Virus record (IMG/VR): IMGVR_UViG_3300042923_000250
Span: 1-60,460 of that record
Origin: a virus
Taxonomy: Duplodnaviria > Caudoviricetes
Reading direction: 5' to 3' (one strand)
DNA: 60,460 nt
The notes under the pieces are model-generated. The model was not told the DNA's origin. It saw nothing but the letters and a program-made list of their open reading frames with translations, and ran no database searches. How positions within the stretch are numbered: position 1 is the first letter of the stretch; the number at the start of each line of letters is the position of its first letter. Shown here in pieces: positions 416 through 52,626 of this stretch. Both the position numbers and the translations under genes were made by a program.

Positions 416-884
416 GTTCAGAGCATGGGATAAGAAACAGAAAGCTTTCATCAATGGATTTAACATGGTAGGGTTTTCAACAGGACAAGGTGCTCCAAAA
501 AGAAAACTGCAAAGATTTTCAAGTTATTGGGATGAAGAAGAAGTTGAGCTGATGCAATACACCGGATTAAAAGATAAGAACGGTAAAGAAATTTATGATG
601 GAGATATTCTACAGGTGGAAACTGCCTGGTACAAGGCAAAAATAACACCTACGCAAGGTGAGGATGAAACGGACGCTATTTTCGGTTATCGAAGAAACGG
701 AATTACATACTGGACGGTAGAGCACAAGATATTCACAAGCCGGGTCGGATTTATGATTTACGGTATCGATAGGAGATTTCACAAGGTTCTTACGCCGAAC
801 ATGATATACAACAATAAGGCAGAGGTTATCGGAAATATCTACGAGAACCCAGAACTACTCACCCAATCACCCACAAACAATTAA
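399..884 (+). CDS. YopX family protein
   Basis: REIKFRAWDK, LMQYTGLKDKNGKEIYDGDI and EVIGNIYENPELL motifs. Confidence 0.92.
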   Translation: MQREIKFRAWDKKQKAFINGFNMVGFSTGQGAPKRKLQRFSSYWDEEEVELMQYTGLKDKNGKEIYDGDILQVETAWYKAKITPTQGEDETDAIFGYRRNGITYWTVEHKIFTSRVGFMIYGIDRRFHKVLTPNMIYNNKAEVIGNIYENPELLTQSPTNN

Positions 885-1140
885 CAATATCAAAACTTAA
901 AACTATGTCATTTTTATATCCATTATCTACATAGCTACAATAAAATATTTTAACCATATGCTGGTCTTTGATAGCTTTGATAGATGCGATTTTATATTTA
1001 AACAGCTCACAATTATCATCCTCAACGCAGAAATACCTTGGACGTAAATCACCTACGGTATTAAAGGCTGCAATGACGGATACTGGATGACCTTGGGGAT
1101 GGCGGATTATTGGACTATGGTCTGGTTTTAAAAATGGCAT
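859..1140 (-). CDS. Putative SOS-inducible hypothetical protein (93 aa)
   Basis: ATG 1140 with GAGGTG RBS; own promoter with a LexA box; opposite strand to neighbours. Confidence 0.7.
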   Translation of the reverse strand: MPFLKPDHSPIIRHPQGHPVSVIAAFNTVGDLRPRYFCVEDDNCELFKYKIASIKAIKDQHMVKIFYCSYVDNGYKNDIVLSFDIVNCLWVIG

Positions 1141-1170
1141 GGGATGCACCTCTGATAGAATAATAAAATT

Positions 1171-1199
1171 ATTATAGAACATTTGTTTGGAATTTTCAA
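1171..1199 (-). promoter_or_regulatory. Sigma-A promoter with Firmicute LexA (Cheo) box in the spacer
   Basis: Minus strand TTGAAA-17nt-TATAAT; AAACAAATGTTC at 1177-1188. Confidence 0.75.
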
Positions 1200-1230
1200 T
1201 GGTAAGTAAATGTAAATTAAGATTGGAGGA

Positions 1231-1374
1231 ATGAAAATGGAAGAAATAATGAAAATTTGTATGGAAGCTTTAGAAAATGCAGGATATGAGACTTATGGAT
1301 ATTCAGAAGCATATCAGATATTTACAGTTAGTACAAGTGAGGGCGAAATTACAGTAGATTTCGATGAGAATTAA
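1231..1374 (+). CDS. Small acidic hypothetical protein (47 aa)
   Basis: GGAGG RBS; open frame MKMEEIMKIC...DFDEN. Confidence 0.55.
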   Translation: MKMEEIMKICMEALENAGYETYGYSEAYQIFTVSTSEGEITVDFDEN

Positions 1375-1429
1375 ATTTAATCAATCCATCCGGCAAGTCC
1401 GGTATAGCTGACAAGGAGGAAACGCATAA

Positions 1430-5492: not shown

Positions 5493-5672
5493 TTATTCAC
5501 CTTCTTTTTTCGTTTTCTGTGTTCCGAAGTAAAAGCCATAAACAGTTGAGATTACAATTAAAAATTCTGCTCCTGTGATTTCTCCTTTGACAGCCAGATA
5601 CGCAAAAACTGCTGTCAATATGATTGTTACTATAGATTTTACATCAATTAATTTACTCCACTTTTCTTTCAT
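5493..5672 (-). CDS. Holin (59 aa, two TM segments)
   Basis: MKEKWSKLIDVKSIVTIILTAVFAYLAV...FYFGTQKTKK; adjacent to endolysin; below ORF-track cutoff. Confidence 0.8.
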   Translation of the reverse strand: MKEKWSKLIDVKSIVTIILTAVFAYLAVKGEITGAEFLIVISTVYGFYFGTQKTKKEGE

Positions 5673-5977
5673 TTTATATCCTCTTTTCTATGTGGCAATT
5701 CCAACAGTTGCTTATATAATTCTGTGATAGTTCCGTTTCCACCCAACGCATGATATTCTTTATACATAGCCGTGACATTCTCCATTGCGTAAATAGGTAT
5801 GTAATCCCTGTCCATATATTTATTGTACTGGTCTATAATTCTGTCTCTTAAAATGGCTTGCACGCCTAATTTTAAGGCTTTAAACTGACGGAATATATAT
5901 AATCCTCCACCACTTAAAACAGTTGTAATGCCTCCGAATAAAACTTCAATCCAATATTTTGTGATAAACTCTATCAT
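5669..5977 (-). CDS. Holin-like / lysis membrane protein
   Basis: N-terminal TM; GVQAILRDRI...YHALGGNG motif; lysis module. Confidence 0.75.
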   Translation of the reverse strand: MIEFITKYWIEVLFGGITTVLSGGGLYIFRQFKALKLGVQAILRDRIIDQYNKYMDRDYIPIYAMENVTAMYKEYHALGGNGTITELYKQLLELPHRKEDIK

Positions 5978-6038
5978 GCATGGGGTACCTTCTTCCCTTG
6001 ATATTTATTTATAAATGCGTTCTGATTAATTAGCTAAT

Positions 6039-6068
6039 CGCAAGGGCAACAGTTAAGTCGCCCTTGCG
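6039..6068 (-). terminator. Stem-loop, probable terminator
   Basis: CGCAAGGGCAAC/GTCGCCCTTGCG inverted repeat. Confidence 0.5.
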
Positions 6069-6076
6069 TGGTACTT

Positions 6077-6214
6077 CTAAGCCAGAGAGTCCAATACTCC
6101 CCAAACTACTACTTGCAGATTGAATAGATTTGGAACCTCTTCTCTCGTATATGCTCCACACAATACAAGTGATACCCAAGACTTAACAATTGCGCTGTTT
6201 GGTGTAAAAATCAT
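6077..6214 (-). CDS. CD1375/XkdX-like small tail-associated protein, paralog 2 (45 aa)
   Basis: MIFTPNSAIVKSWVSLVLCGAYTREEVPNLFNLQVVV... Confidence 0.7.
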   Translation of the reverse strand: MIFTPNSAIVKSWVSLVLCGAYTREEVPNLFNLQVVVWGVLDSLA

Positions 6215-6231
6215 AAAATCACTTCCTTTCA

Positions 6232-6363
6232 TTATTTATCTAAAATTCCGCAAACAATCTCTTGTAAATTGCCGATGTTTGGAATTTCCTCTCTTGTGTA
6301 TGTTCCATTATTAATTAACCTAACCCATGATTGAACTACGGGGCTTTTATCTGTAAAATTCAT
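6232..6363 (-). CDS. CD1375/XkdX-like small tail-associated protein, paralog 1 (43 aa)
   Basis: MNFTDKSPVVQSWVRLINNGTYTREEIPNIGNLQEIV...; GGAGG RBS. Confidence 0.7.
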   Translation of the reverse strand: MNFTDKSPVVQSWVRLINNGTYTREEIPNIGNLQEIVCGILDK

Positions 6364-6373
6364 TGTATCCCTC

Positions 6374-6727
6374 CTAAACCATGCCGTATAACATGGAAAT
6401 CATTATTGTTAACTCTCCGACTGCGCTGTCTGTGAATTTTTGCACATCGGCTATTTTTCTTTCAATTGCATCAATGGATATCTCTACTGTATACGTCCCA
6501 TCATCCATATTTTTTGACAACGATTTCAAAGCTATCCCATCAAGATAGGTTGCGAGGATTTCGTTGGACTCTGACAAATATTCAATTCTATCAACTTTAG
6601 AAAAAGCTAATTCGATATCGGCATAAGGCAATACGGATGAAATTGTGAAGCTTCTTTTCTTATCATTAGTGACGATACCATTTGGTACAAGGTCAAAGAT
6701 TTGACTATTTAATGATATTTTTTCCAT
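6374..6727 (-). CDS. Tail-associated hypothetical protein (fibre assembly-like)
   Basis: Between tail fibre and XkdX-like genes; C-terminal coiled segment. Confidence 0.65.
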   Translation of the reverse strand: MEKISLNSQIFDLVPNGIVTNDKKRSFTISSVLPYADIELAFSKVDRIEYLSESNEILATYLDGIALKSLSKNMDDGTYTVEISIDAIERKIADVQKFTDSAVGELTIMISMLYGMV

Positions 6728-6788
6728 GAATTACTCCTTTCTTGATATAAAAATAAGCCCTCGTGAGGACTTTTCTTAGTGAGTTAAA

Positions 6789-7119
6789 TGATAATTTAGC
6801 TTGGTCTAACGTAACGCTTACCGGAGTAGCAGGAGTTACTGTAGATGGTACACTGCAGCGCAATGGATATGGATCGTTAAAATACAACCTGTACTTTACA
6901 GGAATAACAGCAGCCGTAAATAGTATTGCATCTATAGCAACACATAATTTGTCGCTTACCGGTTATCCAAGGGTTCTACCTGCTGTAATATTGTCTAGTG
7001 GTGGTAGTATTATTGGTAGTTGCTCTATAATTATTAACACCAATGGTACTGTTTTTGTAGCAACAGATAACACCGCAATAACACCGACGAATACAATTAG
7101 ACTTGGTAACGCTGCATAA
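6789..7119 (+). other. Silent alternative tail-fibre C-terminal cassette
   Basis: Open frame DNLAWSNVTLTG...IRLGNAA* begins at an inverted repeat shared with the fibre gene; tail-to-tail with it. Confidence 0.8.
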
Positions 7120-7517
7120 TCTACCAAATAGCTATTTATGTCGTCATATACGACCCACTAATATAAATATCTGCACTTGCTGGTATCTGAAAGTAACTTG
7201 CAGCACCGCTTTGTATTAAATATAGACGCACCGTGTTACCATAGATTAATGCTTGCAACTCAACCCCTGCAGCAATTGTTATTCCTGTTGCAAATGTCAA
7301 CACGGGGATATCGTTTCCAAAAGCTGCAACAGGTAAACTTCCAATCAGTGTACCTCCCGTGCCTGTGTGCCCTGTCCATTTCACGCGAATGTAAAAATTG
7401 ACTATTTTACCGGCCTTAGAGTAGTATCCGACTTGGTTGACATACGTTGCTACACCGGAAGTTGTTAAACCAGAAACAGTTGGAGTAAACGCAATTCTTT
7501 CAGGAGCTAAATTATCA
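6789..7517. mobile_element. Invertible segment (two-state tail-fibre switch) bounded by TGATAATTTAGCT inverted repeats
   Basis: 6789-6801 and the reverse complement at 7505-7517; both encode DNLA in frame. Confidence 0.75.
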
Positions 7518-7747
7518 ATTAGCGTATTAATCGCCTGTCCATGTGCATATGTCACTGCAGTACTCGGATATTTGGTAGTATCGTTAATGGCATCAGATTG
7601 TACCATATTTGCTATGGACTGCTTATTCTCGATTTCAGTATCACATGCATCCAGAGCATCGCTTATTTTATTAAGATTAGTAGCATTGAGCGGTGTTGCT
7701 GTAGATGGGCTATTTTGGAACGTTATCTTTATGTATCTCTTTGACAT
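7136..7747 (-). CDS. Tail fibre / receptor-binding protein
   Basis: PSTATPLNATNLNKI N-terminal motif; C-terminal GYYSKAGKIVNFYI...GSLP receptor-type domain. Confidence 0.8.
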   Translation of the reverse strand: MSKRYIKITFQNSPSTATPLNATNLNKISDALDACDTEIENKQSIANMVQSDAINDTTKYPSTAVTYAHGQAINTLIDNLAPERIAFTPTVSGLTTSGVATYVNQVGYYSKAGKIVNFYIRVKWTGHTGTGGTLIGSLPVAAFGNDIPVLTFATGITIAAGVELQALIYGNTVRLYLIQSGAASYFQIPASADIYISGSYMTT

Positions 7748-7934
7748 CCTCATTGCCTCCTTCCTCGTATGCCTTGCGTTCTGCCTCGATTGTTTGTACG
7801 GCTATTCCGTTCACTTGCGATGATAATTCAAATAATGTCATCTGAGTTATCGCGATAGGCATATTTGCGTCATTTATGACCTTTAAAATTTTCTCTTTCA
7901 TTTCAAATATTTGTAGATTAATACCCTTTGCCAT
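7710..7934 (-). CDS. Small tail-module protein
   Basis: ORF coupled to the fibre gene. Confidence 0.7.
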   Translation of the reverse strand: MAKGINLQIFEMKEKILKVINDANMPIAITQMTLFELSSQVNGIAVQTIEAERKAYEEGGNEDVKEIHKDNVPK

Positions 7935-7994
7935 GTTCTCACATCCTTTTTAGGCATAATGAAAGAGCAGTTCCTTTCGGTTCCGCTCTCATGT

Positions 7995-10121
7995 TTATAT
8001 ATCAATCATTCCGTATCCTCCGCTATTTCCAAATACATCTAATATCGCATTGACTTTGTTTATTACATCGCTCAATGTTGCACCTGTTGATAGTTTAGAT
8101 ATGGCTTTTTGTGTTGTTGGGGTGTTTCCAAAAAAACCTATGCTGGAGCCATCGTGTCTTAATGTAGTGGAATAAAGTGTTGTAAAGTATCCTGTAGTCC
8201 ATCTATTTCCTGTTCTTCCTAAATTGAAAATATTGTTGGCAGACGGATAAATATCCGCACCACTAAAGATTATATTATCTGTATATCCGATATGAGAATA
8301 TATCCTAAGCGCACCGTTTATATTGGTGCTTCCATGCATATTGATGGAGGCCCATGTATCGCTTGAAACATCACCGATATTTACTTCTTTCATAATCAAT
8401 GTCAGCCTTGTACTATATGCTCCAGAATATTCGCCGAGCATGATTGATGATACTCCAAATGAAAGAACGTTATTGTATGCCGCTCCGATATCCCTGGTAA
8501 TACTTCCGGTGCTGTAAAACATTATGTTGTTATCGTTTATTTCTATTGCAGAATTTTTTATTGTTACGCTGTTCATTGAAGAAGCTGTTATTTCTCCGCT
8601 GAACTTCCCGTTAACCGCTTCGATGCTTCCGTCTAATAGGATTTTAAAATTATTATTCGCGGTAACAAGTCCTTCGAACGTGATTTTACTTGCCGCTATC
8701 TTGGCTTCCTCGGAAGTAAGATTGATAGCGCCAATGACGCCATTTTTATCAACCTTTAATGCTACATTATCGGCCATAACGGTTATGCTACCGCTAAGTG
8801 CTCCTTCTGCCTGTGTTGCTCTTGTAACCTCCGCTGATATTTGCTGGGTAGTCTGTGTAAATTGTGATTGAGTATTTTCTGCTAAGTCGGTTAAAGTAAT
8901 ACTTACTTCGTCGACCGTTTTCTTAATTAAGGCGGTACGTCGCTGGAGTTGTATTATTTCTTTGTTCAATCCAAAGTTCTGTTCTCTTTTCTCTGAGCCT
9001 TCTGCAACAAATGAATCCTTTAATGCTTGGATTCCTGTCAATGTCCTCTGAAATACATATCCGGTCACAACATCATCTGTGCTTATTGCAATAGTATCTC
9101 CTACCTCAACATAAGGCAAGCCGATATTCTCGCTCTGATAGGGTCTATAAGGTCTCTTTGCTATATTGCCATACGTATTTAATGCTATGGTTTCTAGCTC
9201 GGCAGCTCCCTTACCGAATACCAAAAAGTTTCCTTCAATGACATAGGCATTTGTTCCGGTGCCGACAATTGCCCCGATATCATCCTCTTCTTGCCTGATC
9301 TGTAGCTTATCAATTTCCTTTACGGTGTATTCCTCAAATTTAACCGAACGATACATGGCTTTACTTATTGTCTCGGAAATTAAATTCGGATCTACAAAAG
9401 ATGTATCCGATTCCGATACCGGATATAAATCATCTGCCGGATAAAGTGTTTCGCTTGGATATAATCCATATGCCGGTTCCAGCACGACGTGAGTAAACTT
9501 GCCTAACCTGTTTATATGCCCGAAACAGCCGTTTATTTCTTCACAGGCCTGTATTGTATTCCTACCGCTTAATTGAGTAGGTTCTATGGTCTTTGCGACT
9601 ATCATAGTGTCATTCGGAAGAGGAAGGGCGGTAATATCCTCTGCCAATCCTAAATGCGACATGAGAGATGCGCGAAAAGCAGCTAGAGTATAAGTTTCGC
9701 TTCCTGTTGGAAATAATCCGTTATACCACCCAGATACATCAGCATCAAATTTCCTCATGCAGTCATAAGCAACAACATCCTTATATCTCAAATCTTCTTG
9801 CTTCTTGCATGAATCGACTTTGTATGTGCCGAATGGAATCGTGTATGCTCCGACTGTCTGTGTAACAGTAAATTCCAAATCCTTTAAGTCTTGCGAAATA
9901 TCAGCTACGGTAAATTTTATTTGAGACGATTCACATGAACCAAAAACCAAATCGCTGTCAGCACATAGCATCTCTGTTAATTTAAATGTTCCGGCTTTTA
10001 ATTTATTGTTTTTCCCGGCTTCATTAATCGTAAGATCGATTGCAGGAAAATAAATTATGTAATACTTCGGGATACTATTTTGTTTGTAAAGTGCTTTTAA
10101 ACCGTTGTCAATCGGCAACAT
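7995..10121 (-). CDS. Baseplate hub / tail spike (Tal-like) protein
   Basis: Follows Dit-like gene; LYPSETLYP motif, coiled coil, beta-rich C-terminus. Confidence 0.8.
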   Translation of the reverse strand: MLPIDNGLKALYKQNSIPKYYIIYFPAIDLTINEAGKNNKLKAGTFKLTEMLCADSDLVFGSCESSQIKFTVADISQDLKDLEFTVTQTVGAYTIPFGTYKVDSCKKQEDLRYKDVVAYDCMRKFDADVSGWYNGLFPTGSETYTLAAFRASLMSHLGLAEDITALPLPNDTMIVAKTIEPTQLSGRNTIQACEEINGCFGHINRLGKFTHVVLEPAYGLYPSETLYPADDLYPVSESDTSFVDPNLISETISKAMYRSVKFEEYTVKEIDKLQIRQEEDDIGAIVGTGTNAYVIEGNFLVFGKGAAELETIALNTYGNIAKRPYRPYQSENIGLPYVEVGDTIAISTDDVVTGYVFQRTLTGIQALKDSFVAEGSEKREQNFGLNKEIIQLQRRTALIKKTVDEVSITLTDLAENTQSQFTQTTQQISAEVTRATQAEGALSGSITVMADNVALKVDKNGVIGAINLTSEEAKIAASKITFEGLVTANNNFKILLDGSIEAVNGKFSGEITASSMNSVTIKNSAIEINDNNIMFYSTGSITRDIGAAYNNVLSFGVSSIMLGEYSGAYSTRLTLIMKEVNIGDVSSDTWASINMHGSTNINGALRIYSHIGYTDNIIFSGADIYPSANNIFNLGRTGNRWTTGYFTTLYSTTLRHDGSSIGFFGNTPTTQKAISKLSTGATLSDVINKVNAILDVFGNSGGYGMIDI

Positions 10122-10133
10122 AATATCCCTCCT

Positions 10134-10523
10134 CTAGTATTCGATAAATGCGATTCGGATAGGTTTGTACAAAATATCGGTATCGGATGTGCTATAAATT
10201 TCAAACGTAATATCTGGTACATAAAATTTTCCAGTCTGATATTCATTATCTTCATCGTTCCAATATGTAACGCTTAATTCAACCCTTGACGGCAATAGCG
10301 CCTGTAAGGCAATTTTATCCGCCAAGCGTAAGTAAGGGGTGTTAAATTCAATTTTAGAACGTGTGTGAGGCACTGTGCTCCTATGTAATAGACCGTCACC
10401 GTCCACGTAGGTGTCATCATCTGTAATTTGGTTTGGAGTTGATATGTAACTTCCATGTGAAATATATTTATTGGTGGAGAGAACCACTTCACCAACTTTA
10501 ATTAAATATCCTAAAAAAGCCAT
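10134..10523 (-). CDS. Distal tail (Dit-like) protein
   Basis: Immediately after tape measure; ends YKPIRIAFIEY. Confidence 0.7.
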   Translation of the reverse strand: MAFLGYLIKVGEVVLSTNKYISHGSYISTPNQITDDDTYVDGDGLLHRSTVPHTRSKIEFNTPYLRLADKIALQALLPSRVELSVTYWNDEDNEYQTGKFYVPDITFEIYSTSDTDILYKPIRIAFIEY

Positions 10524-10538
10524 TGTGATTCCCTCCTT

Positions 10539-13500
10539 TTATTTTTGAAATGGGTCTTTGCCCGTTTGTTTTCGAAATGCGTCGCTTTCAGTTTTGACAA
10601 GTTTGAAAACGCCTTTTGCATCACCCTCAAGAACAACGGTTGTTTGACCGTTGCCTATATTTGCCATTGCCGGAACCAAAACATTAATCAATGCGCCTTC
10701 AACTGCCGATGCGATACTATTTGTGATTTGGTCGTTATTGGCTACTGCGGTACGATTGCCGATGCGTCCAACCATTTCAGGGATACCGTTTTCTCTTGCG
10801 ATGAATGCTTCTCCTGTGTTGGGAAAGCCTCCTGTTTTGTATCCTTTAGTCTTAGGGATTATCCCTAATGGGTCGGTAGTGTCTATTCCGCTAATATTAA
10901 GCAGTAAATTAGTTGAAAGGCTAACAGTGGGAAGTTTATGGCTCGTTATTTCACTGTCAATCTTGGCGAGCCAACCTTTAACTGATAGCACCGCCGTTCC
11001 GTCACTATCGAAAGCACTCTTATAACCCTTGATAAGATTATTGGCATATCTCGGCATATTATCTTTTTGGTATTCCTCTGACTTGTCCTTGATGGCTTTT
11101 CCAACTGTAAATACAAGCTTCGTTCCTTGCACTTGCAAGTCAGGAATTTTACTTTTAAGTCCATTAATAATGCTTTCATCCAGATCACTACCAGCCGTTT
11201 CACTCGCTGCCAACATTTCTAAATATTCTGGGCTGTCAGCCATTCCCTGTCCAATTAAATAAAGAATTGCGTCTCTATCGCCAGTCAATGCTTTCAAGTT
11301 TGCAATGTCGGTTAGCTGTGAAGATATTCCATCTGGAACTTGTGAGCCAGTTTTTAAAGCATCATCGTATATTTTTTTGTACTGTTCTTCGCTTGGCTCT
11401 AATCCAGCAAGCATTTCATTCAATCCGTCTTTCGTGGCTTGACTCAAACCGCTTTCATCAAGTGCGGATAAGTAATTAAATTCCATTCCATCAACAAGAG
11501 CATTAATTCCTTCCGATGGGTCGGAATTTGTAATTCCGGTTACTATTTCTTCTGTGAAATATGTCTCGGTCTTATCTTTAATATTTCCTTTTGCGCTGGT
11601 TAATTCCGTACCATATTTATCAATCAAACTATCAAGCGAAAACTGCGTGCCATCAAAAGATATCTCTGCTTTAGTTTTTGAAAGATTATTGGTGATTTCC
11701 TTGACAGCAGAATCCCATTCGTTTTGGATTGCTTTCTTTTCGGTAGCCGTGGTTGCGTTTTCCATTTTTAATGAATAAGCGGCGTTAACACTTGCCAAAA
11801 CCGTATAGCTTGCTTCTTCGGCTTTACCTATTCTTTCCCCGATTATCTCTTGAATTTTTGCTGTCAGTTCCTTGAAGCTATCTGGTGTTAAATCACCGTC
11901 AACCGTAATCATTTGTAGCTTTGCTTTAAACTCAGCGTCAGCAACCTTGCTGTTGATTTCTGCTATTTCCTTAATTAAGTTATCAATTGTCTTTTGTTCT
12001 GTCGCATCAATAATTCCATCGGCAAGCGCATTATCCATTTCTGATCTAAGGTCTTTGCCAAGCTGTGCCATTTTATCTTTCGAACCATTGAAATATTCAT
12101 CAACCAATTGAGTAATTTCAGTGTTGAAATTTGCATCATTTATAACCGCATCAATCGCAAGTTTCGTTACATAATGTTGTTGTTCGATATATGCTTCGGA
12201 ATCTGTGATAAACTTTTCTACCGTTGCCCCGTATTCGGCAACTTCCTCCGGCGTTAATTCCAGTCCCACGGAAATTTTCCAATTTAACTTGTTGAGGGCG
12301 TTCACATCATCTGTGATGCTTGTTTCTAGTTCATCAAGTTTTGCCTTCTCCGAGATATAAACATCTAATTTTGCAGAATACTCAGTATCGGTAATTCGCT
12401 GTGCGACTTTTTCCATTTCTTCCATGGAAAGTTGAATATCTCCAAACCTTGAAGCCAAGTCTTCTTCAACGAGTTTCTTGTTGTATTCTTTCACGGCTTC
12501 ATAAATCAATATAATTGCACCAACTGCAAGAGCAGCGATTCCGGCGGGTCCAAGATGGAATTTTCCTATTGCTGTTGCTAACTCTCCAAACCATGTGACA
12601 ACTTTATATGTAACAAAGGCTGCTCCGATTGCTTTTAAAATAGGAGAAATTTTATCCATAGTGTCAACGAACGCCTGTATCTTTGGCTGTATTTTATCCG
12701 CTAATTCTTCGGCTTTATTTTTCATATTTGCCAACTCTTCATTGAATTTCGCCATATATGAAGTTGTTTTGTCATTAATAGCATTATCTAATTCGCCATA
12801 TCCCGACCCAACATCAAGCTTTATCCCCTTAGACTTTCCACTCGATAAAATATTCAATTCATCAAAACTCATAAGGGATTTTTTTAAACTGTCAACGGAG
12901 TCCTTAGCTTCATCTGCACCGTCGCCAATACCTTCGATATCGCCCGTGACATCGGTATAAATATTAGTGTCAGTATAGTCGGGCAACTCAAATCCCATGG
13001 CTGTAGCGAGAGTATCCACCATTCTGCGGAGCGCAATTACTAAAGCGTTTATATAAGGAAGAACAGTAGTGACGATGGGTAAAAATACATTACCTATAGA
13101 ACGAGTTAGATTAACCCATTGTTGTTGTAGGATTCGCAATTGGTTAGCTGGGGAATCGATTGTTTTAGCCATATCGCCGAATGCAACCTCAGCTTGATCC
13201 ATGATTGACAGCCATCTTAATTGAACTTTGGCAGCTTGACTCATATTTTCAACTGAGTCCTTAATTCCATAATTCAAAGCGGTCATTTCGAGGGACGTTT
13301 GAGATATGTCAATGCCTAATGTACGAAGCGGTCTAATCTGTCCAGCAAGTCCACTTTGTAACTTTTTCATTGCATCATCCGTATCAATATTCCATAACGA
13401 CGCAATATCATTTCCAAGCAGAGTAAACGACTCTGATATATTCATAGCAGAATTTGCTACCAAACCCATAGAATTAGACATCTGAGCGAATACCGCTTGA

Positions 13501-14402
13501 TAATTCATCATTAGGTTGGGGTCGAGCGATAAAGCATCGGTTATTCTATCGTTGAAAGCTTGCGCCCTATTAATAAACCCTTTTGCAAATTCTTCCGATG
13601 CAGCTGAACCCATTTCCATGCCGAGATCAGTTGCGGTGTCTACTCCAATTTTCTTAAAGGAAGTCTGGAATAAGTTGATTGTCTCGGTGAAGTCCATAGA
13701 CTTCTTAATTGAACCGAATAGAAGATTAACTGCTCGTCTAACCAACCATAATTTTGCATATAATCCAGCGAGGGATAGTGAGAAGTTTTTAGTGTTGGTA
13801 GATGCTTGTTTAGCGGTGTTGGAATATTTTTTGAGCGAACTATTTATACCATTGGTGGCTGACCGAACCTTTGAACCTTGGTTTGCCAAATTGGACAGAG
13901 CATTTGTCATATCGATTAAGTTTTTTGATACGTTCGGAGAGGTCGAGAGGGTCTGCATGAGTCCTCTTAACGCATTTGCCATTAATGGAATATTAGTGAT
14001 AGCAGTAGAAGCGGATTTATAGCCGAGTTTCGAAATGCTATTAGCTAGTTCCGTAATTTGGGTTGCTCCGTTTGTAAGTCCAGTGCTTGCTGTCAAGGCA
14101 GAAGAAATTGTTCGGAGTGCCGAGGCTGTTCCGTTGATTTTGGATTGGTCGATGTTTCCTAGCTTTTCAATATTCTTGGCAAGTCTCGAAAAATCGGCGG
14201 TCTTAACATTGCTCATTGACTGCATGGAGGTTGACAAACTCTGGATACTATTTGCCATGCCTTTTAAGCCAGAAGCGTTAATTCTGGAAAGAGAACTCGA
14301 AACCTTATCTAGCTTACCGACTAATTTTTCTAACTCTGCATTTGCCTTACTTGCTTGTGCTTGGACTTCAATTTCTAAGCGGTCTATAGTCCCGTCTGCC
14401 AT
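10539..14402 (-). CDS. Tape measure protein
   Basis: 1287 aa, helical and Ala-rich; SPANQLRIL; C-terminal GGFP..GEAFIARENGIPEMVG. Confidence 0.93.
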   Translation of the reverse strand: MADGTIDRLEIEVQAQASKANAELEKLVGKLDKVSSSLSRINASGLKGMANSIQSLSTSMQSMSNVKTADFSRLAKNIEKLGNIDQSKINGTASALRTISSALTASTGLTNGATQITELANSISKLGYKSASTAITNIPLMANALRGLMQTLSTSPNVSKNLIDMTNALSNLANQGSKVRSATNGINSSLKKYSNTAKQASTNTKNFSLSLAGLYAKLWLVRRAVNLLFGSIKKSMDFTETINLFQTSFKKIGVDTATDLGMEMGSAASEEFAKGFINRAQAFNDRITDALSLDPNLMMNYQAVFAQMSNSMGLVANSAMNISESFTLLGNDIASLWNIDTDDAMKKLQSGLAGQIRPLRTLGIDISQTSLEMTALNYGIKDSVENMSQAAKVQLRWLSIMDQAEVAFGDMAKTIDSPANQLRILQQQWVNLTRSIGNVFLPIVTTVLPYINALVIALRRMVDTLATAMGFELPDYTDTNIYTDVTGDIEGIGDGADEAKDSVDSLKKSLMSFDELNILSSGKSKGIKLDVGSGYGELDNAINDKTTSYMAKFNEELANMKNKAEELADKIQPKIQAFVDTMDKISPILKAIGAAFVTYKVVTWFGELATAIGKFHLGPAGIAALAVGAIILIYEAVKEYNKKLVEEDLASRFGDIQLSMEEMEKVAQRITDTEYSAKLDVYISEKAKLDELETSITDDVNALNKLNWKISVGLELTPEEVAEYGATVEKFITDSEAYIEQQHYVTKLAIDAVINDANFNTEITQLVDEYFNGSKDKMAQLGKDLRSEMDNALADGIIDATEQKTIDNLIKEIAEINSKVADAEFKAKLQMITVDGDLTPDSFKELTAKIQEIIGERIGKAEEASYTVLASVNAAYSLKMENATTATEKKAIQNEWDSAVKEITNNLSKTKAEISFDGTQFSLDSLIDKYGTELTSAKGNIKDKTETYFTEEIVTGITNSDPSEGINALVDGMEFNYLSALDESGLSQATKDGLNEMLAGLEPSEEQYKKIYDDALKTGSQVPDGISSQLTDIANLKALTGDRDAILYLIGQGMADSPEYLEMLAASETAGSDLDESIINGLKSKIPDLQVQGTKLVFTVGKAIKDKSEEYQKDNMPRYANNLIKGYKSAFDSDGTAVLSVKGWLAKIDSEITSHKLPTVSLSTNLLLNISGIDTTDPLGIIPKTKGYKTGGFPNTGEAFIARENGIPEMVGRIGNRTAVANNDQITNSIASAVEGALINVLVPAMANIGNGQTTVVLEGDAKGVFKLVKTESDAFRKQTGKDPFQK

Positions 14403-23842: not shown

Positions 23843-24193
23843 TTAACAATTGGGGTTAAGCGAAAATCCTATTGATATTTCGTTTAGATTTAAATTTTTA
23901 TCATCAATAAAATAGTCAGCTCCGATTTTTCGGGGATCATTATTATATTTAATGATTTCATCCGGCAAATTCTCGTTGACAGCATCAAAGAACAATCCTC
24001 GGTCATTGCACCACTTGACGGCTTTTTCTGTCTGCTCACCGGTTCTGCATGTCCACAATATCAGTTTGTGACCTTCTTCACGCTTTCGAATACAAAAATC
24101 AATCACTGGCTGGATGGGTTCGCCTATCTCGGGCCATTTGTTTTCTGCCAAAGTACCATCAAAATCCACAGCATATATTTTATAATCATTCAT
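23843..24193 (-). CDS. HAD-superfamily hydrolase
   Basis: AVDFDGT, LWTCR, ADYFIDDK. Confidence 0.85.
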   Translation of the reverse strand: MNDYKIYAVDFDGTLAENKWPEIGEPIQPVIDFCIRKREEGHKLILWTCRTGEQTEKAVKWCNDRGLFFDAVNENLPDEIIKYNNDPRKIGADYFIDDKNLNLNEISIGFSLNPNC

Positions 24194-24668
24194 GTAAAGC
24201 CTCCTTAAATGGTAAATCAATCAATTCAGGATGGTTCTCATGCATCCAAATTGCTCCAAGTATATTCCAAATGAAGGCTCTGGAATGGGGTTCATCTGTA
24301 TCACCACGCAAATATTTAAAAAAGTGTCTTAGTGCGCTGTCAATGAAGCAGTGAACTGGCATACCCTTTTCCCAATTACGATCAGAATATTTTTTCGCAC
24401 CCTCTTCGTACTGCTTTGATACTTCAAGAATTGCAGTGATTATATCTGGAAATTCATCAGCCATAAGCACAAATGACTCTAAAGTATCAAAAAGACAGTC
24501 TATTGTTCCGGTATGTATATAATCATTAATATGAATAATTTCTGGCCTTTCAATAAATTTGTATATTACATCAAGGGGAAGTAAATCACATCTGCCTTTA
24601 CCCTCTGCAATATCCCTTACTGCTCCACTTTCAAATTCTCTGCGTGAACCACTATCTAAAATTGCCAT
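24186..24668 (-). CDS. dATP/dGTP diphosphohydrolase-domain (DUF5664-like) protein
   Basis: FESGAVRD..EGKGRCDLLP, GAKKYSDRNWEKG, SALRH, DEPH. Confidence 0.8.
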   Translation of the reverse strand: MAILDSGSRREFESGAVRDIAEGKGRCDLLPLDVIYKFIERPEIIHINDYIHTGTIDCLFDTLESFVLMADEFPDIITAILEVSKQYEEGAKKYSDRNWEKGMPVHCFIDSALRHFFKYLRGDTDEPHSRAFIWNILGAIWMHENHPELIDLPFKEALHE

Positions 24669-24681
24669 AATCAAATCCTCC

Positions 24682-28501: not shown

Positions 28502-28828
28502 TTATTTCTCGACCCATTCTAGATTATCTGATTTCCAATCATACACATTTCCATTAATAAACTTTACCTTCGTGTATTCGTGAGAGTTTGGAACAAAATG
28601 TTCCGCTACTATGTAATGTAATGATTTTGATATTGTATGGCCCGTATTATCTCGAAGTCTTACAATTATCCTTGGATGTTTATTGTTATTTGAATGCTTG
28701 CTTACTGTTCCGGCTTTAGAAAATCTTTTATCAGTGGATGCCTTTTGATCTAAACTTCTAACATCTCCACTATTACTAATTTGATATAATCCCTCAAATC
28801 CTTTTATATCTAACCATATTTTATCCAA
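28502..28828 (-). CDS. NUMOD4 / HNH endonuclease-like protein, catalytic motif degenerate
   Basis: IWLDIKGFEGLYQISNSGDVRS; HYIVAEHF; VKFINGN...NLEWV lacks the expected His. Confidence 0.75.
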   Translation of the reverse strand: MDKIWLDIKGFEGLYQISNSGDVRSLDQKASTDKRFSKAGTVSKHSNNNKHPRIIVRLRDNTGHTISKSLHYIVAEHFVPNSHEYTKVKFINGNVYDWKSDNLEWVEK

Positions 28829-34869: not shown

Positions 34870-36324
34870 TTATTCATAATTATAATTAATGAACTTCCAA
34901 TAGATTTTTATTTCATTACTAAATATAACTATTCTACTTATCAATGTATTTACCAAATTTCTTTTTTCATCAACTGTACCATTTTCAAAAATATATTCCG
35001 CGGTTCGAACGATTTTTTTACCGTCTTCTATGGAAAGATTAGGAGTATTATTGTTAGCCAATTCATTAAGCTCACTTTCAAGTTGACCGCGCTCTTTTTG
35101 TAAAGGTTCTATTCTAGACGAGATGTCTGATAATGGGATTGTACCTATTTGATATAAATCCATTAATTTATTTACTTGTTTACCGATTTCTGAAATTCTA
35201 TGATTAATTATAATTGCTTTATCGTCTGATGTTTTACTTTGACCTTGTTCTTTCATTTGTTGAATTATATCTGGATTATGAGACAATATTAATATTTGTT
35301 CTTTTATCATCTCATCAAGTACATCTTCCCTGTAGTTTGGGTTTTTGCAGAAGTCAATCTTTTTCATTTCTCGGTTTCCGTCTCTAGAATAACAAATATA
35401 GTAGAAATATGTTCCTGATTTTTTGCTAATTACGCATTTTGTAAAATATCTAGCTCCACAGTTTCCACAAAATATCATTCCAGACAATAGATGTTTTCCT
35501 TTGTATGGGGATTTTTGCGAATCGGTCAACCCACGTTCTAATTCTCTATAACGCTTTTGCGTGCTTATAAATATATCATCGGATATAATTGGCTCGTGTT
35601 GTCCTTGATACTCTTGTTCTTTATACTTTATCTTTCCAATATAAACTGTATTTTTTAGAATTTTCCCGACGGTTCCGTGATTGTTCCATCCAGAATATCT
35701 ATTACTATATTTTGATTTCATGATATCAGTTATTCCGTGAATTGTGTTGCCATGCAAGAATAGGTCAAATATTTCTCTAACTTGCATCGCCTCATATTCG
35801 TTTACAATAAGGTCACCGTCAACAAAGTCGTATCCGATTGGCGCGCCGCTTCCACCATGCCAATATCCATCCTTTGCCCTACCTATATGACCCATAGCCA
35901 TACGTTCTTTAATTTGCTCCCTCTCTAACTGTGCAAACACAGACAGGATTCCGATCATGGCCCGACCGAACGGAGACGATGTATCGAAGTTTTCATTCAT
36001 TGAAACAAAATCTACATTGTTTTTTAGAAATACATCCTCGATTAAATACAAGGTATCTTTTTGGGAACGAGATAATCGGTCAAGTTTATAAACCAACACT
36101 AAATCGATATTGCCAGATTTTATGTCGGATGTCATCTTTGATAGCGCAGGACGTTCTAAATTTCCGCCAGAATATCCGGGGTCTGTATATGTATTTGCAA
36201 CTATCCACCCTTTAGCTTCACTGTATTTTTTTAAACGTTCTGTTTGCATCGGTATAGAATACCCTTCATCTGCTTGCTCTTGCGTTGATACTCTTATATA
36301 AATAGCAGCTCTAATATTGTCCAT
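34870..36324 (-). CDS. int: Large serine recombinase (integrase)
   Basis: YIRVST catalytic Ser, LDRLSR, APIGY recombinase domain, CGNCG zinc ribbon, coiled coil. Confidence 0.95.
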   Translation of the reverse strand: MDNIRAAIYIRVSTQEQADEGYSIPMQTERLKKYSEAKGWIVANTYTDPGYSGGNLERPALSKMTSDIKSGNIDLVLVYKLDRLSRSQKDTLYLIEDVFLKNNVDFVSMNENFDTSSPFGRAMIGILSVFAQLEREQIKERMAMGHIGRAKDGYWHGGSGAPIGYDFVDGDLIVNEYEAMQVREIFDLFLHGNTIHGITDIMKSKYSNRYSGWNNHGTVGKILKNTVYIGKIKYKEQEYQGQHEPIISDDIFISTQKRYRELERGLTDSQKSPYKGKHLLSGMIFCGNCGARYFTKCVISKKSGTYFYYICYSRDGNREMKKIDFCKNPNYREDVLDEMIKEQILILSHNPDIIQQMKEQGQSKTSDDKAIIINHRISEIGKQVNKLMDLYQIGTIPLSDISSRIEPLQKERGQLESELNELANNNTPNLSIEDGKKIVRTAEYIFENGTVDEKRNLVNTLISRIVIFSNEIKIYWKFINYNYE

Positions 36325-47358: not shown

Positions 47359-47562
47359 AAAATGGCATTAGATAAAATCAAAGAAATTGCACGGCTGCTT
47401 GATGGCAAGGGTGAAATTCTCATTAGGAACGACGTGGTGAGCGGCGTATGGTATGTACATTGTTGGTGGGAGGATGGATACAGAGATATTCATAATCAAT
47501 TTACGCCAAATCTAGATAAGACACTTGACTTAATTATAGAAAAATTAGGAGGTACCGAATGA
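47359..47562 (+). CDS. Hypothetical protein
   Basis: ORF in operon; start approximate. Confidence 0.55.
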   Translation, partial: KMALDKIKEIARLLDGKGEILIRNDVVSGVWYVHCWWEDGYRDIHNQFTPNLDKTLDLIIEKLGGTE

Positions 47563-48566
47563 CCAAAAAAAACGAAGTAACCACCCAACAACACACCACC
47601 GAATTATCCCCAAGTGCTAAATTTTCAACCTACGCACTAAAGGAATTTGCATCACAAGTCGGAGGAGAAGTCAACGCTACACAATATCAAACTTCCCTCA
47701 TGCAAGGTTATTTTATAGGGATTGATAGAGCATTAAGAATAGCTGACGAAAGGCGAATAACCAAAAATGAAACCAACACCAATAAAGCCTATAACAACGA
47801 CTTACCTATCACATGGAATACGATCAAATTAAACGAAACCGTCCTTGATGCTGTCCACTACGCAAAAATGGGATTGGATATGCTGCAGCCGAACCACTTA
47901 ACAGTAATTCCTTATAAGGACAAAAAAACCAATAAATATGATATTACCTTCATAAAGGGTTATGCCGGAATCCAATACATAGCTGAAAAATACGCATTGG
48001 ACAAGCCCAAGGACGTAACCACCGAATTAGTTTATTCCACTGATGTGTTTAAGCCTGTTAAAAAGAATGCTGTCAATGCAGTCGAATCCTACGAGTTTGA
48101 AATTATCAATCCGTTTGACCGTGGAAAAGTAATCGGGGGCTTCGGATACATACAATACGACGACCCCACCAAAAACAAACTAATCATCATGACCATGAAG
48201 GATATCGAAAAACGCAAACCGAAATTTGCTTCTGCTGAATTCTGGGGCGGTACGAAAATCGAATATCAGAACGGTAAAAAGGTTGAAGTCGAAACAGATG
48301 GATGGTTCGAAGAGATGTGTATGAAGACTCTAAAACGATATGTGTATGGTGAAAAATTCATTGAAACTGACCCTATGAAAGTTGATGAAAATTACCAATA
48401 TATGAAGATAGCGGAGTCCCGATATGTGGAACTTGAAACCAAAGCTATTATCGATGAACAAGCCAATACGGAAGAATTTGAAATGCCTGAGAGTGAGTCA
48501 GAAAAAGAAACTGTCAGAGCGGAAGTAGTTGAACCTGAGCAATCAGTATTCGAACAGGAGGAATAA
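47559..48566 (+). CDS. recT: RecT-family single-strand annealing recombinase
   Basis: GLD...H...IPY...F.KGY.G, ELVYSTD.F, PFDRG.V.GG, MCMKT. Confidence 0.85.
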   Translation: MTKKNEVTTQQHTTELSPSAKFSTYALKEFASQVGGEVNATQYQTSLMQGYFIGIDRALRIADERRITKNETNTNKAYNNDLPITWNTIKLNETVLDAVHYAKMGLDMLQPNHLTVIPYKDKKTNKYDITFIKGYAGIQYIAEKYALDKPKDVTTELVYSTDVFKPVKKNAVNAVESYEFEIINPFDRGKVIGGFGYIQYDDPTKNKLIIMTMKDIEKRKPKFASAEFWGGTKIEYQNGKKVEVETDGWFEEMCMKTLKRYVYGEKFIETDPMKVDENYQYMKIAESRYVELETKAIIDEQANTEEFEMPESESEKETVRAEVVEPEQSVFEQEE

Positions 48567-51407: not shown

Positions 51408-51781
51408 GTAATCAAAAACCATCCACCTACATAGAAGCCTTCCTCAACTTCATCGACTCCGCAAAATCCTCATATCAATTCGCCTACGACACCGTGGGCG
51501 AAGAGGACAAGCGATTACAAGATTATCTTCATGAGTTGGAGTTAGCCGAGGGTAAATCAGAGAAGGGTAAGGCTTCCACGAAGTTACGAAATAGTCGGAT
51601 TAGTCGGAGGATTAACAAAGATATAACACTTGAATATGAGGATATCGTTAATTTCTTCAACGAACCGAGAAACCGGGATACACTCAATCAACTTCGACAG
51701 CTTCTAGGTAGGCAGCGAAAAACCGAAAGTTATCTTTACGGTGAGAGGATTTATAAGCCGAGAAAGGATAAGGTAAATTGA
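51404..51781 (+). CDS. Hypothetical phage protein
   Basis: LQDYLHELEL...RRINKD...RIYKPR. Confidence 0.75.
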   Translation: MSNQKPSTYIEAFLNFIDSAKSSYQFAYDTVGEEDKRLQDYLHELELAEGKSEKGKASTKLRNSRISRRINKDITLEYEDIVNFFNEPRNRDTLNQLRQLLGRQRKTESYLYGERIYKPRKDKVN

Positions 51782-52626
51782 ACGAAAGTAACTATACGGT
51801 GTATATGCATATAACACCGAACGGGAAAAAATACATAGGCGTAACCAAACAAAAGTTAAGGGCAAGGTGGAAAAACGGTATTGGCTATAAACATAATCCA
51901 CTGTTTTATAAAGCTGTACTAAAATACGGCTGGGATAATATTCAACATATTGTACTACTCACTAATTTATCAAAACAAGATGCCGAGACAAATGAAATAC
52001 ATTTAATATCGGAACACAAAAGTAATCATCGGGATTTTGGATACAACATAGAAAACGGAGGTAACTGTTGCGGAACTCACAGCGAAGAAACAAAAAGAAA
52101 AATTGGTGCTAAAAGTAAGGGAAATCAGATTTGCAAAGGTCGTAAATTATCTAAATGGCACATCGAACAATTAAGAAAAGCGAATTTGGGACATGCAAGA
52201 TATAAAGGATGTCATCATTCAAAAGAAACTAAACTTAAAATGTCGGAAAGTGCAAAAAGGTATAAGAAAACTGAGCTGCATAGACTGCACATCAAGGAAA
52301 GCAGACGAGACACACATGGAATAAATAATCCTATGTACGGCAAACTCCAATCAGCTGAAACAAAGATCAAGATAAGCAATGCTTTAAAAGGAAGAAAGGC
52401 TACGCAAGAGCAGATTACGGCTATGTCTGAGAGGGCAAGAAAAAGAAAAGTGATTAAACTCGACATATACGGCAATGCAATTTGTGAATATGAAAGCTTA
52501 AAAGTTGCAGGCGAGGAAAACCATGTATTTCCTCAAAACATAGGATTGTGCTGTAAAAATAATAGCAAAACTATTGGTGGTTATAAATGGAGGTATGTAA
52601 ATGAACAGTCTGACCATACAGGTTGA
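51778..52626 (+). CDS. GIY-YIG homing endonuclease with NUMOD3/NUMOD1 repeats
   Basis: VYMH..PNGKKYIG.T, GYNI..GG, HSEETKRKI repeats, GGYKWRY. Confidence 0.88.
   Translation: MNESNYTVYMHITPNGKKYIGVTKQKLRARWKNGIGYKHNPLFYKAVLKYGWDNIQHIVLLTNLSKQDAETNEIHLISEHKSNHRDFGYNIENGGNCCGTHSEETKRKIGAKSKGNQICKGRKLSKWHIEQLRKANLGHARYKGCHHSKETKLKMSESAKRYKKTELHRLHIKESRRDTHGINNPMYGKLQSAETKIKISNALKGRKATQEQITAMSERARKRKVIKLDIYGNAICEYESLKVAGEENHVFPQNIGLCCKNNSKTIGGYKWRYVNEQSDHTG

Follow-up and report, generated by a model that had tools for sequence, protein, structure and literature searches.

How could a phage exchange the receptor-binding tip of its tail by DNA inversion when no invertase lies beside the invertible segment? 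Host-range switching by inversion is textbook knowledge for phages Mu and P1, which carry their own invertase. The Mu G segment with Gin, P1 C with Cin, e14 P with Pin and the p15B segment with Min are the serine-invertase fibre switches (named in part in PMC6109161). The record analyzed here (the window, used at its full length) is that of a complete virus; it measures 60,460 bp and has direct repeats at its ends. A preliminary description had proposed for it an invertible tail-fibre tip lacking a neighboring invertase. On the minus strand of the window, a repressor-like gene and a large serine recombinase gene (34870–36324) are followed by the terminase, portal, capsid and tail genes and then by the lysis module. 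The features on which the argument depends are listed below; G001, G002, G004 and G005 are four related genomes which, together with the window, make up five near-complete genomes carrying the switch.

10539–14402: tape measure gene, tail tip module.
10134–10523: Dit gene (DUF6711), tail tip module.
7995–10121: gene for a 708-aa tail protein, between the Dit gene and the 74-aa gene.
7710–7934, minus strand: conserved 74-aa gene upstream of the receptor-binding protein gene (phrog_19373; found in 4 of 4 compared genomes).
7136–7747, minus strand: receptor-binding protein (RBP, 'fibre') gene in the as-sequenced orientation, 203 aa (PHROG 2012, minor tail protein, 1.5e-7).
7518–7747, minus strand: constant N-terminal part of the RBP, residues 1 to ~76, common to all relatives.
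7505–7517: right arm of the inverted repeat, the putative crossover core in the RBP gene, at codons (I)DNLA.
7139–7504, minus strand: head A, the C-terminal domain in the expressed orientation, 122 aa.
7125–7138: central palindrome between the convergent stops, matching 13 of 14 positions of TAAATAGCTATTTA and overlapping the stop of head A.
6802–7119, plus strand: head B, a silent reversed cassette of 105 aa plus stop, without a start of its own.
6789–6801: left arm of the inverted repeat; with 6785–6788 it forms the only exact TAAAT-N4-ATTTA in the genome.
6755–6772, minus strand: terminator-like hairpin (7 pairs, loop of 4, T-tail) with its T-run, just outside the left arm.
6374–6727, minus strand: conserved 117-aa gene downstream of the segment (weak match to phrog_1341; homologues in G001, G002 and G004).
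34870–36324, minus strand: large serine recombinase (integrase), 484 aa (Resolvase, Recombinase and Zn_ribbon_recom domains; phrog_95, integrase).
47559–48566, plus strand: RecT-family annealing protein, a candidate for a homology-driven route.

The 117-aa gene has no Pfam match and is not a recombinase by any of our scans. Two tandem small genes of the phrog_5056 family, encoding 51 and 43 aa (6077–6232 and 6232–6363, minus strand), separate it from the holin gene, which is followed by the endolysin gene. Several features lie farther away. An ORF at 24186–24674 (minus strand, 162 aa) encodes the N-terminal domain of dATP/dGTP diphosphohydrolases (PF18909, 6.4e-16), a family associated with phages in whose DNA adenine is replaced; the Pfam scan returned no further gene of an adenine-replacement pathway besides this one. 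NUMOD4 and NUMOD3 motifs, typical of homing endonucleases, are found in two ORFs (28502–28828, minus strand, and 51778–52626, plus strand). On the opposite strand of the early region, a 107-aa ORF without a Pfam match (859–1182, minus strand) shares 78% and 72% identity with its counterparts in G001 and G004, exceeding the structural genes in conservation.

The repeat is present as it had been described. The exact 13-mer TGATAATTTAGCT occurs at 6789–6801 on the plus strand and at 7505–7517 on the minus strand; 16 of 17 positions agree between 6785–6801 and 7505–7521, and a longer extension covers 26 nt at 81% identity (6776–6801 and 7505–7530). One arm is located inside the fibre gene and the other in an open frame on the opposite strand, and both arms share the same codon phase. 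The minus-strand ORF extends over 7136–7753 (205 aa), but homologues begin with MAKRY, and the real start of the RBP gene is probably at 7747 (203 aa); the plus-strand frame extends over 6763–7119. The two C-termini are arranged tail to tail, with the stops 16 bp apart and with heads of 122 aa (A) and 105 aa (B). When we inverted 6802–7504 in silico, we obtained an open 186-aa product, whose first 81 residues are those of the reference product and whose end is the full 105-residue translation of the cassette, so that the proposed in-frame swap holds. A repeat of at least 13 bp between the gene and the 700 bp downstream was seen in 14 of 2000 first-order Markov shuffles, odds that taken alone are only suggestive; the weight comes from the relatives, 13 of which have a repeat at the same codons. 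A random 111-codon frame stays open with a probability of ∼0.002 in the six frames of this genome.

A second exact inverted repeat of 12 bp (6898–6909 and 7277–7288) is located inside both heads, where it encodes a common TGIT motif; crossover at this repeat would yield chimeric heads. The 13-mer, when allowed up to 2 mismatches, matches the whole window 12 times (4.2 expected; 0 of 100 shuffles reached 12). The ten extra near-matches are scattered and unpaired, and their excess may stem from codon structure.

The plus-strand frame might simply be an ordinary separate gene, with the repeat a relic of shared ancestry, and a gene caller did call a 118-aa protein there (P0009). Ahead of the junction motif, the open part of the frame amounts to just 9 codons (0–27 codons in relatives), and the frame has neither an ATG nor a ribosome-binding site. 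Its GTG lies inside the terminator-like hairpin, and the region has no more promoter-like matches than chance would give (8 found, 9.0 expected). The homologous domains are always C-terminal: the four homologues of head B are all ends of proteins of 323–619 aa, and one of them directly follows an INNNLA motif. These features speak against expression of the plus cassette from a start of its own, which the preliminary description had named as one case that would overturn a switch, and they make a separate gene improbable in the extreme.

PHROGs annotates the product of the RBP gene as a minor tail or tail fibre protein. In seven relatives from the database, similarity covers the N-terminal 39–45% of the query alone, past which they diverge completely. 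No cultured phage among 50,697 phage records contains the N-terminal family, and a blastn search of 6300–8000 against these records gave no match. A structural model of the whole protein was poor (pLDDT 51.9), too poor for a fold search, and provides only a hint, at low confidence, that a helix formed by residues 63–80 ends at the junction. Head A (residues 83–203) has matches in 4 phage records, each time at the C-terminal end of a protein; one of these proteins carries a tail fibre annotation. No relative was found in IMG/VR when the spare head B was used as a protein query, and BLASTP detects no similarity between heads A and B beyond the common TGIT motif (E 2.8).

Head B, modelled together with its homologues, reached a pLDDT of 85.3 and a pTM of 0.75. 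A fold comparison (VIA) aligned 101 residues of the model to the receptor-binding head of bIL170 (2fsd_A; Z 10.2, r.m.s.d. 2.8), and the heads of p2, TP901-1 and Listeria PSA followed at Z 8.7–9.0, with sequence identities of 9–17% across the fold matches. The first 16 matches listed are all siphophage receptor-binding heads, and adenovirus and reovirus heads appear at Z 5–7. A Foldseek search of head B against the PDB alone returned nothing at E ≤0.001 (best 0.012). The spare cassette is thus predicted to form the β-sandwich head of the lactococcal RBP fold, and the RBP gene follows the tape measure, Dit and tail-associated protein genes in the baseplate module, as in phages of the TP901-1/p2 type. 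On the basis of the model and the gene order, the gene is best described as encoding a small baseplate RBP of the TP901-1/p2 type with an exchangeable head. It shares the head fold, the small size and the position after Dit and the tail-associated protein with the RBPs of TP901-1, p2 and bIL170. The heads of TP901-1 and p2 are interchangeable modules, and chimeric TP901-1/p2 structures are among our fold matches. RBPs of this type attach to the baseplate as homotrimers, by way of their N-terminus. To our knowledge, no reversed spare head has been described for a lactococcal RBP.

Does the design recur in other phages? An alignment of the N-termini, used as query, located nine loci in IMG/VR, six loci in uncultured Bacillota genomes (including one of Clostridiales and one of Anaerocolumna) and 18 short contigs in metagenomes of digesters, fermenters and bioreactors. 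Counts refer to the 23 records in which the gene is complete and is followed by 300 bp or more of sequence. An exact inverted repeat of 11–16 bp, with its first arm at the junction codons, is present in 14 of these (the window, L003, L004, L005, L010, L012, L017, L023, L025, L029, L033, L035, L036 and L038). Twelve of the 23 contain an intact reversed head of 74–106 codons that ends 2–16 bp from the stop of the expressed gene; L006 is included here, but has mismatched arms. Remnants of a spare head are found in three records (L017, L025 and L035), and eight have none. The window has one spare head and L033 has two, which lie in tandem (766–1068 and 1053–1376, minus strand). The nearer spare head of L033 has the core centre AGTA, another lineage's type, and the gene itself has AAGA, as though this head came from another phage. 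The homology around the core of L038 has decayed, leaving the core as the only exact stretch. A search with the conserved 74-aa neighbor returned nine loci, of which six are new (L050–L055), distant and without core sites.

Alignment of the arms defines the core as (C)TAAAT-N4-ATTTA(G). The half-sites are the same in all phages aligned, and the central four bases are of four types, GATA, AATA, AGTA or AAGA. The centre is identical in both arms in 13 of the 14 records having both, a descriptive count, as the records are related and not phylogenetically independent. Arm identity ends abruptly on the variable side of the core. The half-sites coincide with Leu-Asn and Asn-Leu codons, and their conservation may be partly due to protein constraint. 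Beyond the core at 6785–6801, the window contains no second exact site of this type.

A second palindrome, TAAATAGCTATTTA, which had not been noted in the preliminary description, is found where the two heads meet and provides stop codons in both directions. In the window it lies partly in the 16-bp non-coding spacer (7125–7138), and its half-sites are those of the core. Of 55 loci compared, 15 contain the exact 12-mer AAATAGCTATTT; they correspond to 10 distinct records, in 9 of which it is located at the stop of the fibre gene. In relatives, the palindrome TAAATAGCTATTTA was mapped in perfect form at the stop of the RBP gene, as follows.

L003, 5516–5529: palindrome.
L023, 1604–1617: palindrome.
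L028, 998–1011: palindrome.
L031, 3821–3834: palindrome.
L038, 2452–2465: palindrome.

L028 has this palindrome at the stop of its RBP gene despite having no spare head. L003, L004 and L035 share the flank beyond the left arm, and we attribute this conserved boundary to the terminator-like hairpin on the minus strand (6772–6755). The predicted RNA fold of the boundary region is unexceptional (z −0.73).

Comparison of relatives places breakpoints on these sites. L031 and L023 align in direct orientation, at 85% identity, up to the N-terminus of the gene, then in inverted orientation, at 82% identity, from the core to the palindrome, and are unrelated past the palindrome. Because the alignment is inverted between core and palindrome, the silent head of L023 is the expressed head of L031. 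The two heads match at 85 of 106 residues, with dN 0.129, dS 0.745 and dN/dS ∼0.17, a ratio that a head silent for long periods would hardly be expected to show. L036 and L037 share 98% identity through the final base of the core and, once more, past the segment, but their heads are unrelated. The identity of L030 and L029 ends within the core. Two contigs terminate on the sites, L027 within the core and L011 on the final base of the palindrome; these ends would fit assembly branching at the sites and are weak evidence.

We searched for the flipped state in two sequencing runs and in a protein collection. The comparison of runs X1 and X2 covered 5600–9000 on assembled contigs, which hide rare variants, and X2 yielded only short pieces of relatives. 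In X1, which contains 0.99 of the sampled words of the window and may be the source sample, one contig of depth 109 covers 5600–8103 in the reference orientation, with no joint reported. A low-depth contig of 821 bp in this run matches only 36 bp (6766–6801, the terminator flank and the left core, with 2 differences) and diverges on both sides; to judge from its sequence, it represents a second, different family member in that sample. The 186-aa flipped product is absent from a collection of 5.8 billion proteins, in which a search for products of near length gave only the window's own ORF among 20 candidates. The orientation check that had been proposed for this locus, when run on assembled contigs, thus yields the reference orientation and no inverted form. 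The remaining elements of the original proposal, namely an invertible architecture, a swap that keeps the frame and the absence of a neighboring invertase, hold for the window and for a whole family of relatives.

The single orientation seen in the contigs and in the protein collection is in line with a static arrangement, in which heads are swapped at the junction among co-infecting or resident relatives, and in which the inverted orientation merely shields the spare head from deletion, with no programmed flipping. Breakpoints between relatives do show exchange at the sites, the number of spare cassettes varies from 0 to 2, and remnants occur. In such an arrangement an unexpressed head should decay, yet all 12 spare heads are open over 74–106 codons, head B models at a pLDDT of 85, and the silent/expressed pair has a dN/dS of ∼0.17 at a dS of 0.75. 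The perfect repeat is also kept at the silent arm, which is free of coding constraint unless the arm is used. We regard a purely static arrangement as unlikely. The suggestion that the switch is frozen is likewise disfavored, given that its core is perfect, that its silent head is intact and foldable, and that purifying selection acts on the silent head of a relative.

Which enzyme could act on these sites? The preliminary description had recognized only one site-specific recombinase in the genome, a serine integrase 27 kb away, and a Pfam scan of 60 ORFs together with six-frame searches of the 60,460-bp genome agrees. The six-frame search returned no match to PF00589 and a single match to PF00239, the 484-aa large serine recombinase. 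No invertase is found next to the switch in the window: neither a small serine invertase (∼190 aa) nor a tyrosine recombinase is adjacent. Comparison of relatives, suggested as a way of recognizing a deleted enzyme, gave the same picture, with no adjacent invertase in G001, G002, G004 or G005. G001 and G002 encode large serine recombinases, 26% identical to that of the window, after their lysis modules and ∼4–5 kb from the switch. G002, which is 100% complete, has 12 core bases identical with the window. The core is also the same in G005, a 100% complete provirus whose only integrase is a tyrosine enzyme encoded at the far end, and neither a serine nor a tyrosine recombinase was found in G004 (90% complete). 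Gene profiling of the five genomes showed that only tail-module genes are common to all; a 107-aa protein is present in three of four, and no candidate enzyme emerged. From the differing recombinases and the sharing of tail-module genes only, we conclude that no common phage-encoded enzyme is apparent.

These comparisons bear directly on the possibility that the phage's own large serine integrase (34870–36324) also inverts the segment. It is the sole site-specific recombinase of the genome, and the position of the G001 and G002 enzymes within ∼4–5 kb of the switch might be taken to favor such a role. The core is, however, the same in the company of serine integrases only 26% identical to that of the window, of a tyrosine integrase (G005) or of no recombinase at all (G004), and the window has no second exact core-type site elsewhere. 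Large serine integrases, moreover, recombine two unlike sites, and without a helper protein they work in one direction only. We thus consider the integrase, one of the catalysts initially put forward, a very unlikely one.

Another catalyst initially put forward was RecT. Flipping might need no dedicated recombinase if rare micro-homology events between the 13–16-bp arms, by RecT/ERF single-strand annealing or by template switching at forks, sufficed and selection kept the arms identical. RecT or ERF is encoded in three of the five near-complete genomes carrying the switch (RecT in the window and G004, ERF in G005), and the arms are identical within each phage whatever their central bases. Neither was found in G001 or G002, in a search limited to the RecT and ERF families. 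Arm identity amounts to just 11–16 bp and ends abruptly, though longer homology would be easy to keep, and in L038 the flanks have decayed and the core alone is exact. Homology by itself also leaves the recurring palindromic half-sites and the third site between the heads unexplained. We regard a micro-homology route as improbable, to about the same degree as the static arrangement.

A recombinase acting in trans is the best fit among the catalysts that had been suggested. We looked for the strict core pattern in three host-like metagenome-assembled genomes with related prophages, and one of the three matched, at a single unpaired site. Because no further paired sites occur in the three genomes, nothing in them points to a host regulon of this kind.

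We propose a two-state inversion switch of the RBP head, with the recombinase supplied in trans and with the same sites serving as exchange borders, and give this reading as a whole an even chance. The constant N-terminal ∼80 residues of the RBP would end in a helix, where the core TAAAT-N4-ATTTA is embedded in coding sequence. A reversed copy of the core precedes the start-less spare head, which lies tail to tail with the expressed head, and the second palindrome, with the half-sites of the core, marks where the heads meet. Crossover between the two cores would flip 6802–7504 and join head B in frame. The enzyme, which is not encoded beside the switch, would most likely be provided in trans by the host or correspond to an unrecognized protein. 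We favor a site-specific enzyme in trans because the core is short, palindromic and conserved across phages, its centres match, and a third site has the same half-sites. The same sites would double as cassette borders for head exchange between related phages. What the data show is the anatomy, the swap in frame, the fold of the spare head, the conserved and co-varying sites, and breakpoints located on them; flipping in this phage, and the nature of its catalyst, are what we infer from these features.

A bolder version of this switch is possible, though doubtful. The TAAAT-N4-ATTTA sites may form a natural cassette-exchange system, in which a lineage-specific junction centre and the fully symmetric palindrome (centre AGCT) flank each head. 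One recombinase not encoded beside the switch, either a host enzyme borrowed by Clostridia-type phages or a member of an unrecognized protein family, would bind all three sites, flip the segment within a phage and swap heads between phages in either orientation. Such a system would resemble engineered exchange between sites with unlike spacers.

The locus resembles the Gin, Cin, Pin and Min systems in that crossover sites within the fibre gene bound a segment with alternative in-frame C-termini. These four systems likewise join a constant N-terminus to alternative C-terminal parts via short repeats inside the coding sequence. In contrast to these systems, no small serine invertase is found beside the segment or anywhere in the genome, no fibre-assembly gene is located within the segment, and the protein is a siphophage RBP of ∼200 aa rather than a long myophage fibre. 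The core is a different, shorter AT-rich palindrome. Gin/Cin-type systems use 26-bp crossover sites of the gix/hix type and a Fis-bound enhancer, and TAAAT-N4-ATTTA does not look like the gix/hix consensus.

The accessible text of Mavrich et al. 2018 describes the bifidophage Rin shufflon, which acts on the RBP of a Gram-positive siphophage with a constant N-terminus, variable heads likened to that of TP901-1 and 11 bp sites (PMC6109161). As described there, Rin has an adjacent tyrosine invertase and asymmetric sites, whereas no member examined here has an adjacent invertase, the core is a palindrome whose centre varies, and the border between cassettes is marked by another palindrome in the middle. 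The defining adjacent invertase is lacking, and the switch thus falls outside both the serine-invertase group and the tyrosine-recombinase shufflons (R64 Rci and bifidophage Rin). According to the same text, a second bifidophage locus, which no recombinase flanks, undergoes inversion at an 8-bp sequence, and its authors proposed an invertase in trans (PMC6109161). This second, invertase-less locus is the nearest precedent found; it comprises genes of unknown function and was seen in one genome pair.

Global invertases acting in trans are known from bacteria, among them RecV of Clostridioides difficile. Mpi of Bacteroides fragilis is another (cited in the accessible text of PMC6109161). With Mpi and RecV, a recombinase encoded elsewhere flips several distant segments with short inverted repeats; these enzymes act on the bacterium's own promoters and genes, whereas the target here is in a phage and no paired host sites occur in three genomes of the candidate type. 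Phage tail genes figure among the targets in a systematic survey of inversions that alter genes (PMC9881135), with no mention, in its accessible text, of the RBP family described here. In the article text covered, we found no description of this family. The logic of the switch is shared with the Mu G and Rin-type systems.

Taken together, our analysis defines a family of uncultured phages, from anaerobic digesters and Bacillota metagenome-assembled genomes, in which the design of a switch is present without an adjacent enzyme and with a precise junction of 14–16 bp. If the switch flips, a change of host range in these phages would depend on a recombinase from elsewhere, and the identity of that enzyme would become a concrete question that can be tested. 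For comparing and exchanging heads among phages of laboratory strains, the junction at the putative end of the N-terminal helix and the stop-bearing palindrome may prove useful, as they would be natural cut-and-paste points of RBP heads.
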